The notes below the pieces were generated by a model. The model was not told the origin of the DNA. It ran no database searches and saw only the letters and a program-made list of their open reading frames with translations. 45,183 bases of DNA from Planctomycetota bacterium. Lineage in GTDB: Bacteria > Planctomycetota > GCA-002687715 > DRQF01. Of this stretch, positions 728 through 13,080 are shown piece by piece. The stretch covers positions 1 through 45,183 of the forward strand of contig JAZGFI010000042.1 of assembly GCA_036479435.1 (NCBI GenBank), read 5' to 3'. The translations under genes and the position numbers were made by a program. The first letter of the stretch is position 1; each line of letters begins with the position of its first letter.

Positions 728-2377
728 TTATCCGCCGAGAAGGACCTCAAGTCCGTTTGAGTGAGCTCCATTACCTTGCTCAACGGCTTGAAGGTAGACC
801 GTGGAACCGGCGAGAGCCGGTTGAAAGAGCGAAACGAAAAGACGCCACTCACCCATGGCGTCGGTCATTTCTGTGGCCAGGTCCGTGGTACTGAGGTCGA
901 TAAAGACCGGGATGCCAAAGACGGTGGTATTGTCCGGCGCCGTGGCGAGGCCGACGAAGAGTAGGGAGAAAGGTGTCGCTCCGGTGAGGGCGAGACGCGG
1001 TGCAGTCGGGCTAGTTTCGTAGTCGAGGTCGAGGGGCGTGCCCACGGCGCCGTACTTTCTGGTCCCCATCATCGAGCGTGCGATGGTCAAGGGAGTCCCC
1101 GGAAGGGCGGGACCATCAAAGGAGAGAACAAAGTCGTCAAAGCCGTCGCCATTGGTGTCGCCGAGGGCCGTGTCGAATGCCAATTGCGAGTATTGAGCGA
1201 GTATGCTGCCGTTGGTTCCTGAGACCAACCTAGTAGCGGACCCGACCTTGGAGGAAAAATCCGGGGTTGAGTCGCCGTTGACGTCTCCCGCGGCACGGAT
1301 GTTGTCCAAACCTGGGGTGAAGGCAATATCACAGAAACGTCGAATCTCGACGCCAGTTGCGCCGGAGACCAGTGACCAAGCTCCCACCGCGTCGACGGCG
1401 ATGGTAACGCCGGTGCTCAGGGGAATCATGATGTCGCCGATTCCGTCTTGGTCGGCATCAAAGCCGCCAAATCCGTCTCGGCAGGCGTGGCCGATAACGC
1501 CGCAATCATTGAGAAGTCCGGTACCCAGGGTTCCATACACATAGACAGTGGACCAAAGCGAGGCACCAGTGGCACCCGACACGGCACGAAGGTAGCCTCC
1601 GTTACCAGAGAACGATCCAAATGGAGATGAGACGAGGGTGCCAGGGCCGCCGCAAGCAAAATCATCGAAGCCGTCGTTGTCGACGTCTCCGAGTCGGGCG
1701 AAGGTCTCGCCGAATGCCCACGAGCTCGGATTGGTTTCGAAGACGCTCAAGATCTCGCTGCTGGCGACGATGTCGATGATGCGGACGCGACCGCGACCGA
1801 GGTTTGTCCCGTTAATCGTGAAGGGAAGCGCAATGGCGACATCCTGAATGCCGTCACCGTTGACATCCCCGGCCCCATGAATCGAAGCCACATTGAACGA
1901 GTCGGCTGCATTCAGATAGAAATTGGAATACACCGTTGCGAAACTGACGCCGTCGTACACCTCAAGCGAGATATCCGGGCCGAACCCAAAAAAGAATGCC
2001 GGGCGTCTAAGAATGGCGAAGTCGACAATTCCATCGCCAGTTACGTCGCCCACAAAGTTGAAAGTCTCGATTTCCCAGAAAATGACTCCGGGGCTCGGAG
2101 GCGCTACGAAAGTGACATTGGCATTCGCCAGCAAGGCGCCATCGCGGCCGGACACGAATTGGATCTGCTCCACTCCCATGTTGGCATGAACCACCAACAA
2201 GTCATTCGCACCATCGCCGTCCCAATCCTGAGTCTCCTGCCCGACCCGTGCCGTGGCATTGATGGGCATGGTGTTGCTGTGGGTCCAGATCTCGTCGAGC
2301 TGGGCTTGGGCCGGAGCCCAAGTCATCATGATTGCCGCGATCAAAAAAAGTACCGGTTTCGTCGAGCGAAAGTTCAT
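728..2377 (-). CDS. Secreted FG-GAP (integrin-alpha-like) seven-bladed beta-propeller protein with a C-terminal domain
   Basis: GGAG RBS before ATG 2377; signal peptide ending AQA; seven DxD/NxDG-type Ca-binding repeats (DWDGDG, DVTGDG, DVNGDG, DVDNDG, DADQDG, DVNGDS, DTNGDG) plus SGATG-type motifs. Confidence 0.9.
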   Translation of the reverse strand: MNFRSTKPVLFLIAAIMMTWAPAQAQLDEIWTHSNTMPINATARVGQETQDWDGDGANDLLVVHANMGVEQIQFVSGRDGALLANANVTFVAPPSPGVIFWEIETFNFVGDVTGDGIVDFAILRRPAFFFGFGPDISLEVYDGVSFATVYSNFYLNAADSFNVASIHGAGDVNGDGIQDVAIALPFTINGTNLGRGRVRIIDIVASSEILSVFETNPSSWAFGETFARLGDVDNDGFDDFACGGPGTLVSSPFGSFSGNGGYLRAVSGATGASLWSTVYVYGTLGTGLLNDCGVIGHACRDGFGGFDADQDGIGDIMIPLSTGVTIAVDAVGAWSLVSGATGVEIRRFCDIAFTPGLDNIRAAGDVNGDSTPDFSSKVGSATRLVSGTNGSILAQYSQLAFDTALGDTNGDGFDDFVLSFDGPALPGTPLTIARSMMGTRKYGAVGTPLDLDYETSPTAPRLALTGATPFSLLFVGLATAPDNTTVFGIPVFIDLSTTDLATEMTDAMGEWRLFVSLFQPALAGSTVYLQAVEQGNGAHSNGLEVLLGG

Positions 2378-2485: not shown

Positions 2486-5107
2486 TCAGTGAGACGGTGA
2501 GGAAGCTTGAGACCGCGGGCAGGTGAGTAGAACGGCCATGACGGTGATGGCACTCAACATTTCGATGCTTTCGAAGAACTGGAAATGAGCCGATCGCAAG
2601 AAGTACCAGCCTTCGTTTTCGAAGAAGAGAAGAACCAGAAACGAAAGGGCGATGCGAACTGCATAGAGAAAGGCGACGGCGGCGACGCTGGGCGCGGTGT
2701 TTAGTTCAGCTCGTGGGCGTGATGCGGCATAGGCCGCCAGGGCGATTGCCAAGGGCGCGGTGTGTTGCAGCAAGATGGCCACAAGGGCGAGGTTTAAGTT
2801 GACTTTGCCATCGGCGAAAGCAAAGGCGGAGTTCATGTCAAAGGTCGACAACTTGTAGCGGTAGCCCTGCGCAAACCAGTAAAACATCTCGTACAAAAAG
2901 ACCGTGGTCAACGCGAAGAGGCCCGGTGATTTCAAGCGCGCTAAGGCTACGGCGAGCAAGATGGCTCCGCCGAAAAAGGCGAGGCCAAACATGAGGTTGC
3001 CTTCGACAATGAACAAACGATAAAGGCCAAGGAAGAGCACCGCGACTCCGAAGCTGCGTGGAGCCAGGGGATAGGTTGATTTGGGCTCAAGGCGGGGAAG
3101 GAAAAACATGCCCACGACAAAAACCCCAAGGGCCGCCCAGCCGAGACTGATGGAATCCCAAGTTCGCGCGAAATAGGCACAGGTGAAAACGATGGCGCCA
3201 AAGGCAGATGATAGGACGAGACGACGTTGCGACCCGGGCGCGATGCGTCCGACCAAGACGCCCGCCGCCGACACCGTGAACACCAAGGTGATGAGGTTGA
3301 TGACCCAGATCGCTTTGAAGTCTGGGACACGGTAGGCCACTTCGACCTTTCCTCCGAGCAAATGAATGCTGTAGGCCGACAAGAACAAGACGCCAATTAA
3401 CGCAAGACCCGCGGCATAGCGACCGGATGTTGTGGCTGATCTCGAAGCAGCTAAGGCCCCAACCGCGATGACATAGAGCGCAAGGTAGGTCTCGACTTTC
3501 GGGCCGAAAGCCCAGGCGACCGTGAGGTAGCTCGTCAAAGTGAAGAAAAACACCCAGATCCACTCGCGGCTGTTATTCCAACTCTTGTTCAAACGCGGGC
3601 CGAACTTGCTGCGGCGCCAGCGCGCCCAAAAGTGTCGCAACGCGAAACCGCTTCCAAACCACAGGACGATGGCGAGGAAGTCATCAAGACGAAAGAGATC
3701 GCGGAACAGGCCCATCAGATAGTAGGCCCAGAAGTTTCGAAAAACCTGAAGGAAAACAAAGAGGCCGCAAAACGCTGCCGCGAAGGCGCAGGTGATGCGC
3801 CAGTCGATCGTCAGCGAGGAAGTGCTGAGGTGAAAAAACAACGCGCATGCCAACAGCGCTAAGACCAAGACGATGAGTCCCGACCACAGCCGTTGGCTGC
3901 GGCCTTGGGCCTTGGCCTCGGCGACCAAGGACCGATTGAGAGCCGAGCTGGATTCTTTGAGCCCATTCGCAAGCCTTACTGCACGGTCTTCAGAGAAGTT
4001 GGCGTCGGCGAGATTCAAGTTGGCGGCGGCCAGAATGCGCTCTTCGGCGTCGATGGCAAACTCAGGGTAGGCCTTGCGGGTTTGCTCCAGGCGGGCGCAT
4101 AGACTAGCGGCTTGCAAGGTGGCGGCGTCTCGCGCGCCGTGCGTCAACAACTCATGGCGCAAGGGAGCTTCAGCGCCGCGCGGGCTGCGGAGGCCGAAGA
4201 GCCCTGCCAACAGGGGGCACAGTTCGATGCCCTCGAGGTTTTGGTCACCCTCGACTTGTCGGATGCCGGGCCCACAAGCGGCGTAGCGAGTTCGGCGACT
4301 GATGTCGCTGAATCCACCGTGAGTTCCGGATTCGGTACAGCCGTGATCTGAAATGGAAAAAAGTGTCGTGTTGGCACCAGCGCGTTGGTGCCATTCTCGC
4401 GTCAACTTGTCAATGTTGTGAATGGATCGAGAGTAGGGCGTGAGCTCACCATTTTCGTCTCGGAGTCCGGCCCCGAACTTGTGAGAAAGCTTGTCCGGCG
4501 TCGAGAAGTGAACGACGAGTACATTCCAGTCGGGATCGTCGATGAGCTCGTCGATCTGCTTGATGACCTTAAGGTCGCGCTTGTACCAGTTGTCTTCAAT
4601 CTCCACTTGAAACCCAGTGAAGGGGTAGACGCATTTCCATTTACAGTCGCGATCGAAGGCTGAGTACCAAGTGGAGTCGCCAAAAAAGCCAACGGCGAGT
4701 TCGCGCTCGGCATAAAGGTCGAAGAGATCTTCGCCGGGCCAAGGCGGCACTACGAAGTTGGTCATGGCGGTCTTAAGGGGAGGGGTAATGCCGGTGCCGA
4801 AGCAGGTCACCGAGACGCCAGTGAGGCTCGGGCCGGGGACCATGAGGTCACCGCTAATGCCCTTGGCTGCGACCTCCTGAAAATAGGGCGCGATCTCGGC
4901 ATCCATCATGGGAGCTTTGCGAACGCTGTCGCCGAGGATAATCAGGAGGCGTTGAGTCAGGGCCGGGGCGACGATGGCAGCGCCCTTGTTGGCACTTGGA
5001 GCCTGTGCTTCCTCGGCGAAGTAACCCCGATAGAGCGCCGTGAGAGTCGTGCTCACGAGGAGGATACAAAGCAGGGTGAGGACGCGAGCGAGTGGGCCTC
5101 GCTTCAT
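2486..5107 (-). CDS. Alkaline-phosphatase-superfamily membrane transferase resembling GPI ethanolamine-phosphate transferases (PIG-G/PIG-O type)
   Basis: N-terminal TM; motifs GDSVR, PSLT, FFGDSTW, WNVLVVHFSTPDKLSH, SDHG, THGG; about a dozen C-terminal TM segments; ATG 5107 overlaps the cysZ stop (ATGA). Confidence 0.8.
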   Translation of the reverse strand: MKRGPLARVLTLLCILLVSTTLTALYRGYFAEEAQAPSANKGAAIVAPALTQRLLIILGDSVRKAPMMDAEIAPYFQEVAAKGISGDLMVPGPSLTGVSVTCFGTGITPPLKTAMTNFVVPPWPGEDLFDLYAERELAVGFFGDSTWYSAFDRDCKWKCVYPFTGFQVEIEDNWYKRDLKVIKQIDELIDDPDWNVLVVHFSTPDKLSHKFGAGLRDENGELTPYSRSIHNIDKLTREWHQRAGANTTLFSISDHGCTESGTHGGFSDISRRTRYAACGPGIRQVEGDQNLEGIELCPLLAGLFGLRSPRGAEAPLRHELLTHGARDAATLQAASLCARLEQTRKAYPEFAIDAEERILAAANLNLADANFSEDRAVRLANGLKESSSALNRSLVAEAKAQGRSQRLWSGLIVLVLALLACALFFHLSTSSLTIDWRITCAFAAAFCGLFVFLQVFRNFWAYYLMGLFRDLFRLDDFLAIVLWFGSGFALRHFWARWRRSKFGPRLNKSWNNSREWIWVFFFTLTSYLTVAWAFGPKVETYLALYVIAVGALAASRSATTSGRYAAGLALIGVLFLSAYSIHLLGGKVEVAYRVPDFKAIWVINLITLVFTVSAAGVLVGRIAPGSQRRLVLSSAFGAIVFTCAYFARTWDSISLGWAALGVFVVGMFFLPRLEPKSTYPLAPRSFGVAVLFLGLYRLFIVEGNLMFGLAFFGGAILLAVALARLKSPGLFALTTVFLYEMFYWFAQGYRYKLSTFDMNSAFAFADGKVNLNLALVAILLQHTAPLAIALAAYAASRPRAELNTAPSVAAVAFLYAVRIALSFLVLLFFENEGWYFLRSAHFQFFESIEMLSAITVMAVLLTCPRSQASSPSH

Positions 5108-5835
5108 GAACTCATGGTCCGGAGCTCTTCGTTCCAAAATATGGTGCCGCCGGCGACCGCGGTCGGCATCGCCACCAAATTGACGAAGGGAGTCGCAAAA
5201 GCGAGCAGAGTCATGCCGCCAAAGCCGAGGGCGATCCAGGGCTTTTTCCGGATGCGGCGTCGCATCTCGCGAAAGGGAAGTCCGTTGTTGTCCATGGCGT
5301 AGTCAACGAATTGCAAGGTCAGCATCCAAGCCGAAAAAGTGGCCCAGGCCAGCGCGCCAAAGGGGCCAAAAAAACAGGCCAAAAGCAAAAACGGAATCGA
5401 CAAGATCACGAAGTAGACGATCTTCTTGGTCTCTTGGATCAAGATTGTCGGCATACGTTTGACAAGTTGAGCCCAAGTGGTTGCCGGTGGCCCCGGCGGG
5501 CGGAGTTTTTGTTCAACGGCCTCTGCCAACAGGCCGTTGAAGGGCGAAGCAACCAGGTTGGCGGCGGCGATAAAGCCGAAGAACAGTGCAAGAGTCCAAA
5601 GGCTGCCGAACACCACCCAACCCAGCCAGTCAATCCAAGACAGCCAGCTGGGAGTTTTCGATTCGGTCCAAATCATGAAATCTGAAAAGTAGTCGGCGCC
5701 GACCAAGACGAAGGCGATGAACATCAACACCGTGAGCCCAATGGGAGCAAAAGCAAACACGCGGACGCGTTTGCCCCAAATAAGCGGCATGCCTTGCCAA
5801 AAAAAGCCCATGCCTTTCGCTAGGTCGTCAAACAT
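5104..5835 (-). CDS. cysZ: CysZ/EI24-family sulfate transporter
   Basis: ANLVASPFNGLLAEAVE, QFVDYAMDNN and PFVNLVAMPTAVAGGT are CysZ signatures. Confidence 0.88.
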   Translation of the reverse strand: MFDDLAKGMGFFWQGMPLIWGKRVRVFAFAPIGLTVLMFIAFVLVGADYFSDFMIWTESKTPSWLSWIDWLGWVVFGSLWTLALFFGFIAAANLVASPFNGLLAEAVEQKLRPPGPPATTWAQLVKRMPTILIQETKKIVYFVILSIPFLLLACFFGPFGALAWATFSAWMLTLQFVDYAMDNNGLPFREMRRRIRKKPWIALGFGGMTLLAFATPFVNLVAMPTAVAGGTIFWNEELRTMSS

Positions 5836-11943: not shown

Positions 11944-13080
11944 TTAGCCCTCGATCCAAGCGAGGTAGGCGGCGGGGAGCCCTCGGGGGAAAAGTCGTTT
12001 CCGCCAAGTTTTTGCGCTGAAGTCGGGCCGCGGCATCTCCGGACGCGGTACTGCCTTTGGCGCGCTCGCTTTGAGATTGAAGAACGATAGCTCGGCGGGA
12101 CGGTCGCGTTTAGGGTTGACGTCGATCTGGAGCATCCAGTCGTTCCCTCGGTCGCCACATCCGAGACTCACAAAGTGAATTTCGCTGTCTTTTTCCTGCT
12201 CGTGAAACACGTTGTGGCTGCGCCCCGGAAAAGCGCCCGCGTCACCTGCGAGGCACAGGACGGCTTTGCTCTTGGCCAAAGATTCGAGATGGGGTCTGAT
12301 GTCGCGGCGGAAAGGGTGAACCTCGCCAAGTTTTTCCACCATGGACAACAACATCGGCCCGTCATTGCTGGACAAAGCCGCAACGGCCAAACTCGCTGAG
12401 TCGCCCCATATCACGCGGTGGCAACAAATGATGACGGCTCGAATGTGGTCTTGTTGCTGAACGGCGCGAAGCTCTTTTTGAAGCCAGAGAAGTTGCGCGC
12501 CTTGGATCACAAACTCAGGGTGCTCAGAGTCCAACACCAACACTTGCACAGATCTGAATTGAAAGCCGTACCAAAGCGGGCCGAAGTGAATTTCAAAGCG
12601 ACCTCGCGGCAAGTTGTCGTGGTTTCCCAAGACACCCAGCACTGGAAAGGGGAGGCGTTTGAGCACCCGCTGGGTGTGCAAGAGCGTCGCTGGCAACGAG
12701 TCGAAGAAAGTGTCGCCCAAAGCCAACATGAAGTCGGGGTCTCGATCCGAAAGACTGGGGATTGCATTCTCAAAAGAACTGGCCGGGCGAGGCATGCCTT
12801 GGCCCTGTCGGCCGTAGAGGTGGCCGCCGGCTAGGATGCGAACCTGACCGGATCGATCCCGCGTTTCGATGAGCGCGGCTGAGTTTAGCGGCTTGACTGC
12901 CTTGGGGAGCACGCGACGCGAAGGTCGCGGAGCATCCGGGAAGCTGCGAGTTTGCGAGTTTTCCCCGTCGGAGATGGCAGAAGTCTCGGGGCCACAAGTT
13001 ATCAAGCCAGCCGCGATGCACGCGGCCAACACCACGACCACGCTGGCCAGTCCAAGATTCTGTTGCCGCTCCGTCCGCAC
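11944..13080 (-). CDS. Membrane-anchored calcineurin-like metallophosphoesterase with atypical motifs
   Basis: N-terminal hydrophobic segment; LGDTF, GNHD and CHR motifs; GGHLYG and AGDAG in place of DxH and GHxH. Confidence 0.8.
   Translation of the reverse strand: MRTERQQNLGLASVVVVLAACIAAGLITCGPETSAISDGENSQTRSFPDAPRPSRRVLPKAVKPLNSAALIETRDRSGQVRILAGGHLYGRQGQGMPRPASSFENAIPSLSDRDPDFMLALGDTFFDSLPATLLHTQRVLKRLPFPVLGVLGNHDNLPRGRFEIHFGPLWYGFQFRSVQVLVLDSEHPEFVIQGAQLLWLQKELRAVQQQDHIRAVIICCHRVIWGDSASLAVAALSSNDGPMLLSMVEKLGEVHPFRRDIRPHLESLAKSKAVLCLAGDAGAFPGRSHNVFHEQEKDSEIHFVSLGCGDRGNDWMLQIDVNPKRDRPAELSFFNLKASAPKAVPRPEMPRPDFSAKTWRKRLFPRGLPAAYLAWIEG

Follow-up and report, generated by a model that had tools for sequence, protein, structure and literature searches.

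Do bacteria encode full-length counterparts of the eukaryotic glycosylphosphatidylinositol (GPI) ethanolamine-phosphate transferases PIG-G, PIG-O, and PIG-N, and if so, what might such a protein do? The question is raised by a gene in a 45,183-nucleotide stretch of a Planctomycetota bacterium (assembly GCA_036479435.1, contig JAZGFI010000042.1; hereafter, the window), which an initial annotation made from the letters alone had compared with PIG-G and PIG-O. The gene, whose product we call P0001, is a minus-strand open reading frame (ORF) that runs from an ATG at 5107 to 2486 and encodes 873 amino acids (aa). Its frame has no stop from 5137 to 2486, the plus-strand reading of the same stretch is riddled with stops, and its GC content (0.58, with 0.70 at third codon positions, GC3) is in line with that of the adjacent genes. 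The initial annotation was thus right to call a gene here, and every motif that it quoted is found in the translation; the strand, which it left unstated, is the minus strand. The host genome, which is 92% complete, carries one copy. We conclude that P0001 belongs to a large uncharacterized prokaryotic family and is a genuine relative of the GPI ethanolamine-phosphate transferases over its full length.

Searches with P0001 alone returned little: the Pfam scan gave a sole match (PF01663, residues 54–259), there was no family match in NCBIfam and no significant match in the PDB, and single-sequence homolog searches yielded 3 proteins by word index and 10 with alignment. Profiles reach further. 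A profile of P0001 and its two closest homologs matched 1304 representatives at E ≤ 0.001 and 376 at 1e-10, and among the matches listed (150), 115 were 740–1000 aa long. For residue counts we used an alignment of 112 rows (A2), which comprises 111 of those 115 (PIG-G and three others were left out) plus one row of 517 aa; we infer that most rows are prokaryotic. The reference set consisted of animal PIG-G sequences, of which 120 were collected and the 119 of at least 760 aa were used.

The relationship to the eukaryotic enzymes emerged unprompted when a profile of three bacterial sequences retrieved the PIG-G of the insect Lygus among 1.84 billion proteins (E 1.4e-19). Whole-chain superposition in the Atlas gave a template-modeling score (TM-score) of 0.76 with the PIG-G cluster (775 residues), 0.73 with PIG-O, and 0.69 with PIG-N (751 residues); since the soluble part spans only about 400 residues, the membrane part must take part in superpositions of 751–775 residues. 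Taken with the catalytic-domain comparison described below, these results establish the full-length homology of the P0001 family to PIG-G/O/N, as had been suggested from the motifs.

Enzymes of the alkaline-phosphatase superfamily employ two-metal chemistry via a phospho-enzyme intermediate. The corresponding domain of P0001 possesses D60, T96, N117, D205, H209, D254, H255, and H263, carried by the motifs GDSVR (D60), PSLT (T96), PDKLSH (D205 and H209), SDHG (D254 and H255), and THGG (H263); GDSTW (143–147, the GDxTW of PIG-G), D178, and H200 are also common to PIG-G. A full set of metal ligands and nucleophile had been proposed, and the alignment columns agree: D205, H209, H255, and H263 are invariant in the 112 family members, D60 and D254 are each kept in 111, and position 96 holds T in 108 members, with S in the other 4. 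The metal ligands and nucleophile all correspond to those of PIG-G, where the equivalent positions are invariant (119/119 sequences). Profile–profile alignment of the family with PIG-G over this domain gave a probability of 100 (hhalign; E 4.7e-49, 261 columns).

Among solved folds, the nearest are hydrolases of the NPP family (Z 26.1 and 25.8), the best being Xanthomonas NPP 7mw8 (Z 26.1; root-mean-square deviation 2.6; 253 residues aligned; residues 51–324), and the NPPs (7mw8, ENPP7) and PafA share the metal ligands of P0001, arranged in an identical order. One might therefore suppose that P0001 strips or recycles head groups as a membrane-bound phosphodiesterase or phospholipase, all the more so as its two-metal site is of the NPP type and a phospho-threonine intermediate can also pass to water. 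We consider this improbable. The NPPs are the nearest structures available, because the PDB copy searched holds no solved PIG structure (a PIG-G query against its sequences found none). In sequence, the catalytic domain is much nearer PIG-G, which scores 173 bits on the hidden Markov model (HMM) of the family catalytic domain, against 98 bits for the best solved NPP on the HMM of the whole family, two models that differ in extent. The closer kinship to NPP/PafA that would have spoken against the initial annotation is thus not seen. Moreover, NPP and PafA are soluble or single-pass hydrolases without a multi-pass domain, and a hydrolase has no obvious need of 15 spans with conserved outward polar residues.

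The order of the domains (one N-terminal transmembrane helix, the catalytic domain, and then the membrane domain) is that of PIG-G, PIG-O, and PIG-N, and is plain in the sequence and in the AlphaFold 2 (AF2) models (predicted local distance difference test, pLDDT, 86.5 and predicted TM-score 0.89 for one; pLDDT 83.5 for another). The N-terminal helix is present in 107/112 family members. The order had been recognized, but "about a dozen" spans for the membrane domain was too low, as the AF2 helices give 1 + 15. This predicted topology obeys the positive-inside rule, with 0.207 K+R per residue in inside loops and 0.066 in outside loops among 19 close relatives. Under one hydropathy rule, the median number of predicted spans is 14 in the family versus 11 in PIG-G.

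In EptA, MCR, LtaS, and OpgB, the membrane domain precedes the catalytic domain. The layout of P0001 is therefore the reverse, as had been pointed out, and what P0001 shares with EptA/MCR-1, LtaS, OpgB, and YejM/PbgA is an extracytoplasmic alkaline-phosphatase-fold domain with a threonine nucleophile. Fold searches with the full model found only alkaline-phosphatase-fold domains, and Foldseek matched just the catalytic domains of LtaS, YejM, and MCR-1 (TM-score by query 0.22–0.26). The model of the membrane domain had no match to a solved structure better than Z 8.2, and its matches were without exception generic helical bundles, a result that rules out no family. The type of reaction is likely shared with the EptA/LtaS class.

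Sequence similarity to PIG-G in the membrane half is restricted to its last third. A membrane-only HMM scored at least 12 bits on 80/119 PIG-G membrane halves versus 0/118 scored reversed controls, the C-terminal HMM gave 22.9 bits on one PIG-G half (best of 200 shuffles, 7.8), and the hhalign score of 35.2 compares with 9.3–17.1 in 40 block shuffles. A late membrane loop with a counterpart in the PIG proteins had been predicted from the motif YWFAQGYRYKLSTFDMNSAF (743–762), and HMM alignment indeed places loop 747–770 on the PIG-G motif G-N-S-N-x4-I-D-x3-G; position 757 is D in 83/111 family members, and the equivalent D occurs in 110/119 PIG-G sequences. Further on, the region of R818 and W834 aligns to R-x-H-L-F-x-W-x-V-F-x-P-K of PIG-G (R in 85/111 and W in 74/111 members). 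The predicted topology would bring the two conserved loops of the membrane half (D757, W834) and the catalytic domain together on the periplasmic side, which is what one would expect of an active site that receives lipid substrates on that side.

P0001 is far from unique: its family, large and patchily spread, comprises hundreds of prokaryotic proteins, among which P0001 is a divergent and patchily distributed copy. Few of 30 proteins looked up were named, and their labels are "hypothetical" or "alkaline phosphatase family protein", the latter in entries for Planctomycetota, Nannocystis, and "bacterium". In the Atlas, the family forms clusters in Myxococcota, Thermoplasmatota, and Verrucomicrobiota, some of them being largely archaeal (56% and 80% Archaea). 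Alignment A2 matches 33/401 Planctomycetota genomes at E ≤ 1e-25 (a floor, with shorter forms included), among them 15 of the 16 in one planctomycete family and 1 of the 8 others in the window's own family, and 12/201 Myxococcota genomes at 1e-40. With a narrower alignment, 54 loci were obtained, of which 48 are labelled Myxococcota, and a metagenome scan with the three-sequence alignment found just two distant loci, one of which was placed with eukaryotes.

The phylogeny that the initial annotation had called for was built from the catalytic domain. The tree is unrooted and has 47 rows, 8 of them eukaryote-type (PIG-G only), with no outgroup, PIG-O, or PIG-N. The eukaryote-type rows form their own branch (100/100) and P0001 lies within a prokaryotic group (97/99), neither inside nor directly beside the eukaryotic one. 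Grouping P0001, P0002, and P0004 with eukaryotes is disfavored (approximately unbiased test, p-AU 0.042), while the test does not reject a Polyangiales-type group as their sister (p-AU 0.35). By this tree, P0001 is not especially close to eukaryotes. Recent transfer from a eukaryote is rejected, since GC and GC3 match those of the neighbors and the tree places the gene within the prokaryotic rows.

Several variant forms were seen. Some genomes of one planctomycete family (f28) carry two copies (L044, L051, L055; G355, G391, G315). Those of G355 form a tandem pair that is separated by a small membrane protein and accompanied by a divergent GT2 gene. Shorter relatives of 520–660 aa (L056–L060) occur in Planctomycetota and Myxococcota, and a 555-aa Chloroflexota cluster of the Atlas superposes at a TM-score of 0.72 by its own length, which suggests that in one form the membrane domain is reduced.

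What, then, might P0001 do? The known homologs with its layout are, in the passages of PMC7125958 that treat them, all transferases that depend on phosphatidylethanolamine (PE) and have luminal catalytic sites, and PE is given as their donor in part of PMC8757616. We read P0001 as an inner-membrane PIG-G/O/N homolog that would move a phospholipid head group, probably phosphoethanolamine from PE, to a sugar of a periplasmic glycolipid or lipid-linked glycan, and we give this reading about an even chance. The activity would likely be an accessory modification of the envelope, not protein anchoring. The chemistry is inferred from that established for the alkaline-phosphatase superfamily, and donor and acceptor are putative. 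Two metal ions (one at D60, D254, and H255 with T96; the other at D205, H209, and H263) would activate T96, which would attack the phospholipid, releasing diacylglycerol and leaving a phospho-threonine intermediate; the head group would then pass from phospho-T96 to a sugar hydroxyl, in a two-metal ping-pong reaction at the periplasmic leaflet. The membrane domain, by analogy with the PIG proteins, may accommodate both substrates, the lipid donor and an acceptor that is itself lipid-linked.

To see which pathways accompany the family, gene content was compared in 40 genomes that carry it (from just four lineages) and 37 that do not. The PE-making gene psd is present in 38/40 carriers. At 12/52 Myxococcota-type loci (about nine independent contexts), a glycan-synthesis gene (GT4, GT2, GT21, Wzx, GDP-mannose dehydratase, or RgpF) lies within two genes, compared with a base rate of 4.2% (142/3414) in the host genome; GT21 glycosyltransferase genes are near 8 Myxococcota-type copies. 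Along with the PE-dependent homologs, we count the psd and glycan-gene results in favor of head-group transfer to a lipid-linked sugar. As an observation in its own right, Polyangiaceae (L083, L084, L090, L109, L114, and others) have a recurring block in which the family gene is preceded by CapA-like and FGE-sulfatase-like genes and followed by TerB-like, GT21, and GtrA genes.

A number of results tell against this reading, and they should be considered together. K206 stands where PIG-G has an invariant H, the sole deviation in the catalytic and PIG-type motif set, so that donor or metal use may differ. The domain-wise comparison with PIG-G that had been proposed gave a probability of 100 for the catalytic domain, but 19–47% for the membrane half, where global mode yielded no alignment at all. 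P0001 alone scores −10.4 bits on the PIG-G membrane HMM and matches neither PIGO_PIGG (PF19316) nor PigN (PF04987) at E up to 0.1; the same two families were unmatched in 28 further members, while a PIG-G control matched at 8e-28. An Atlas structure search with residues 398–865 alone returned no PIG protein (best TM-score 0.32), and Atlas feature matches of these residues to PIGO_PIGG reached 0.80–0.82, under the 0.9 bar. The gene psd is common, and its count covers carriers only. No glycan gene lies within two positions at 40/52 Myxococcota-type loci, and the enrichment is overstated, because the seeds were chosen post hoc from the same loci, the base rate comes from another phylum, and the genomes are related. 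Finally, the suf and cysZ neighbors of this copy are uninformative about glycans. As the membrane half retains a signal above all shuffles, we read that domain as homologous to the PIG proteins yet strongly diverged; the total lack of similarity that would have undone the proposed relationship was not found.

The comparison with individual PIG proteins can be stated briefly. With PIG-G/Gpi7 and PIG-O/Gpi13 (GPI ethanolamine-phosphate transferases 2 and 3; PF01663 + PF19316), P0001 shares domain order, size, the catalytic set with GDxTW, D178, and H200, the late "ID...G" loop, the terminal R...W region, and the overall predicted structure (TM-scores 0.76 and 0.73); it differs in its ~20% identity, its lack of a PF19316 match, K206, more predicted spans, a position outside the eukaryotic branch, and a host with no GPI8 match and no PIG-F match (for the latter, the control was silent too). 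PIG-N/Mcd4 (PF01663 + PF04987) has the same layout, a likeness judged from the structure cluster (TM-score 0.69 over 751 residues) and not from sequence, and P0001 has no PF04987 match.

Some EptA- and OpgB-type enzymes modify proteins or soluble periplasmic glucan. The chemistry would permit the same here, with a soluble glucan, or proteins of the periplasm or surface, as acceptors of the head group, and the 40/52 loci without glycolipid genes nearby fit such a role; so does P0006, a relative of 1416 aa in which the transferase part is followed by carboxypeptidase-regulatory-like repeats. No conserved candidate substrate gene adjoins the family, however, and for the PIG homologs the acceptors are lipid-linked (PMC7125958), which leaves this explanation with a slim chance, in our estimate.

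If the acceptor is a lipid-linked sugar, lipid A or the core of lipopolysaccharide has to be weighed, in which case P0001 would do the job of EptA/EptB on a different scaffold. The gene lpxC is present in 27/40 carriers, including all 18 Planctomycetota tested, and among the 12 fetched f28 regions there are 5 in which lpxB stands at a distance of one to three genes from the family gene, beyond uvrA, with lpxD also present in one. This synteny comes from one lineage, however, and the intervening uvrA is on the opposite strand. Only 9/22 Myxococcota-type carriers have lpxC, the other 13 (draft genomes) lacking a match, the Atlas clusters are largely archaeal, and there is no lpx neighbor at this copy. 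Lipid A is therefore an unlikely acceptor family-wide, and we regard it as improbable for P0001. In f28 the gene is preceded by a small membrane protein (~245 aa, no Pfam match; upstream of 12 copies). It was considered as a PIG-F analogue and set aside, having no counterpart in the host genome.

The initial annotation had gone further and suggested a possible place in an undescribed GPI-like pathway. In a prokaryotic pathway of this kind, an inositol glycolipid would be built and proteins such as the secreted FG-GAP protein encoded downstream would be anchored. The genome search that it recommended did find an inositol-phosphate synthase gene, psd, four CDP-alcohol phosphotransferase genes, and a PIG-V-like gene in the host, and inositol-phosphate synthase is present in 39/40 carriers; it is also present in 28/37 non-carriers, including 20/20 of the same order. 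GPI8 (C13 peptidase) had no match in the host genome, where the positive control matched, and C13/GPI8-family matches occur in 5/40 carriers. PIG-M, PIG-B, GAA1, and PIG-F had no match in the host genome, but their controls were equally silent. Co-occurrence with PIG-V was rejected (1/40 carriers vs. 4/37 non-carriers). The PIG-V-like gene (PF04188; G000:C297, L126:997-2172) encodes a 391-aa membrane glycosyltransferase, lies upstream of an asparaginyl-tRNA-synthetase-like gene, and was found in 5/77 genomes, all within the host's order. These counts leave a GPI pathway around the family unsupported; P0001 is not a member of one by the features tested, and we think a prokaryotic GPI-like system very improbable.

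The FG-GAP gene does lie 108 nt downstream on the same strand, if the ATG at 2377 (MNFRSTK...) is taken as its start, and its product lacks a long hydrophobic tail, both as described. The speculative link with P0001 did not hold up and is rejected: the gene is missing beside the ortholog in G003 (a genome of the same family), no relative was found at the other fetched loci, and the FG-GAP protein has 17 other relatives in the host genome. The number of promoter-like sites between the two genes (2) is what chance would give (1.9 expected). The C-terminal ~100 aa of the FG-GAP protein form a domain with a Q...SNGLE-like tail and no Pfam match; its HMM matches 17 host-genome proteins, mostly at the C-terminus, and it could serve in sorting or surface attachment.

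The coordinates of the gene, its domains, and its neighbors are collected in Table 1. The overlap of the cysZ stop with the P0001 start was missed at first, and an equivalent overlap (GTGA) is found in G003, where the suf–cysZ–P0001 gene order is repeated. The G003 ortholog (G003:C21:84961-87460, L004) is broken by a frameshift; assembly indels are likelier than a pseudogene, because the adjoining sufS is also in several frames. Downstream of it lies a formate-dehydrogenase-like cluster (read from translations). In the remaining 7 genomes of the window's family, no P0001-type gene was found and cysZ is located elsewhere, not at the end of the suf operon. CysZ is thus unlikely as an obligatory partner, being present in 9/9 family genomes, beside a P0001-type gene in 2, and adjacent in no other carrier locus. 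Upstream of the suf operon, after tldD/pmbA, the window also encodes a calcineurin-like metallophosphoesterase whose N-terminus carries a hydrophobic segment (11944–13080).

Table 1. Positions in the window of the P0001 gene, the parts of its product, and neighboring genes
Feature	Position	Strand	Basis
PIG-G/O/N-like membrane phosphotransferase gene (P0001), 873 aa	2486..5107	-	ORF, profile searches, models
N-terminal anchor helix TM1, residues ~9-29, N-terminus predicted cytoplasmic	5021..5083	-	hydropathy; AF2 helix 3-30
Alkaline-phosphatase-fold catalytic domain, residues ~50-325, predicted periplasmic	4133..4960	-	PF01663, fold match, hhalign, column counts
Helical stalk joining catalytic and membrane domains, residues ~326-406	3890..4132	-	AF2 helices 325-346, 353-367, 373 onward
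C-terminal membrane domain, ~15 predicted spans, residues 407-862	2522..3889	-	AF2 models, positive-inside test, whole-chain TM-score 0.76
Conserved loop 747-770 (L753, D757, A761), predicted periplasmic	2798..2869	-	HMM alignments, column counts
R818 and last predicted outward loop with W834	2582..2656	-	HMM alignment
cysZ/EI24-family gene, stop codon overlaps P0001 start (ATGA)	5104..5835	-	
suf operon (Rrf2 regulator, sufB, sufC, sufD, sufS, sufT-like), upstream of the P0001 gene	5864..11799	-	context only
Secreted FG-GAP protein, 549 aa, not part of the system	728..2377	-	

In the literature searched, which left most subscription journals outside its scope, we found no description of this prokaryotic family. 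The roles of PIG-N, PIG-O, and PIG-G are outlined in the part of PMC7125958 cited above. As for the origin of the GPI pathway, the available portion of PMC12338589 assigns components of GPI synthesis and maturation to Asgard archaea and does not name PIG-O/G/N there, while that of a preprint (bioRxiv 10.64898/2026.05.08.723234) describes a chimeric origin of GPI biosynthesis with up to four Myxococcota contributions, the enzymes again not being named in that portion; the PIG-O/G/N homology may already be among its cases. A broader idea is that the family represents the prokaryotic stock of PIG-N/O/G, placing phosphoethanolamine on an inositol- or ceramide-based glycolipid in Planctomycetota and Myxococcota, such that the decoration would be older than GPI anchoring. 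The near-universal inositol-phosphate synthase and psd in carriers, the GT21 genes near eight copies, and the tolerated sister position of the Polyangiales-type group point that way, and we consider the idea possible though doubtful.

In eukaryotes, PIG-N, PIG-O, and PIG-G are essential enzymes, and their genes are human disease genes. Single-chain bacterial homologs would be tractable material for studying PIG structure and mechanism, for which the PDB copy searched offers no solved example. The family would also make the origin of the GPI pathway testable, on which the preprints are split between an Asgard and a mixed Asgard–Myxococcota source. The interest resides in the family, and less in this copy. 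For bacterial envelope biology, it suggests that phospholipid head-group transferases come in a second class, in which the layout of EptA/LtaS is reversed.

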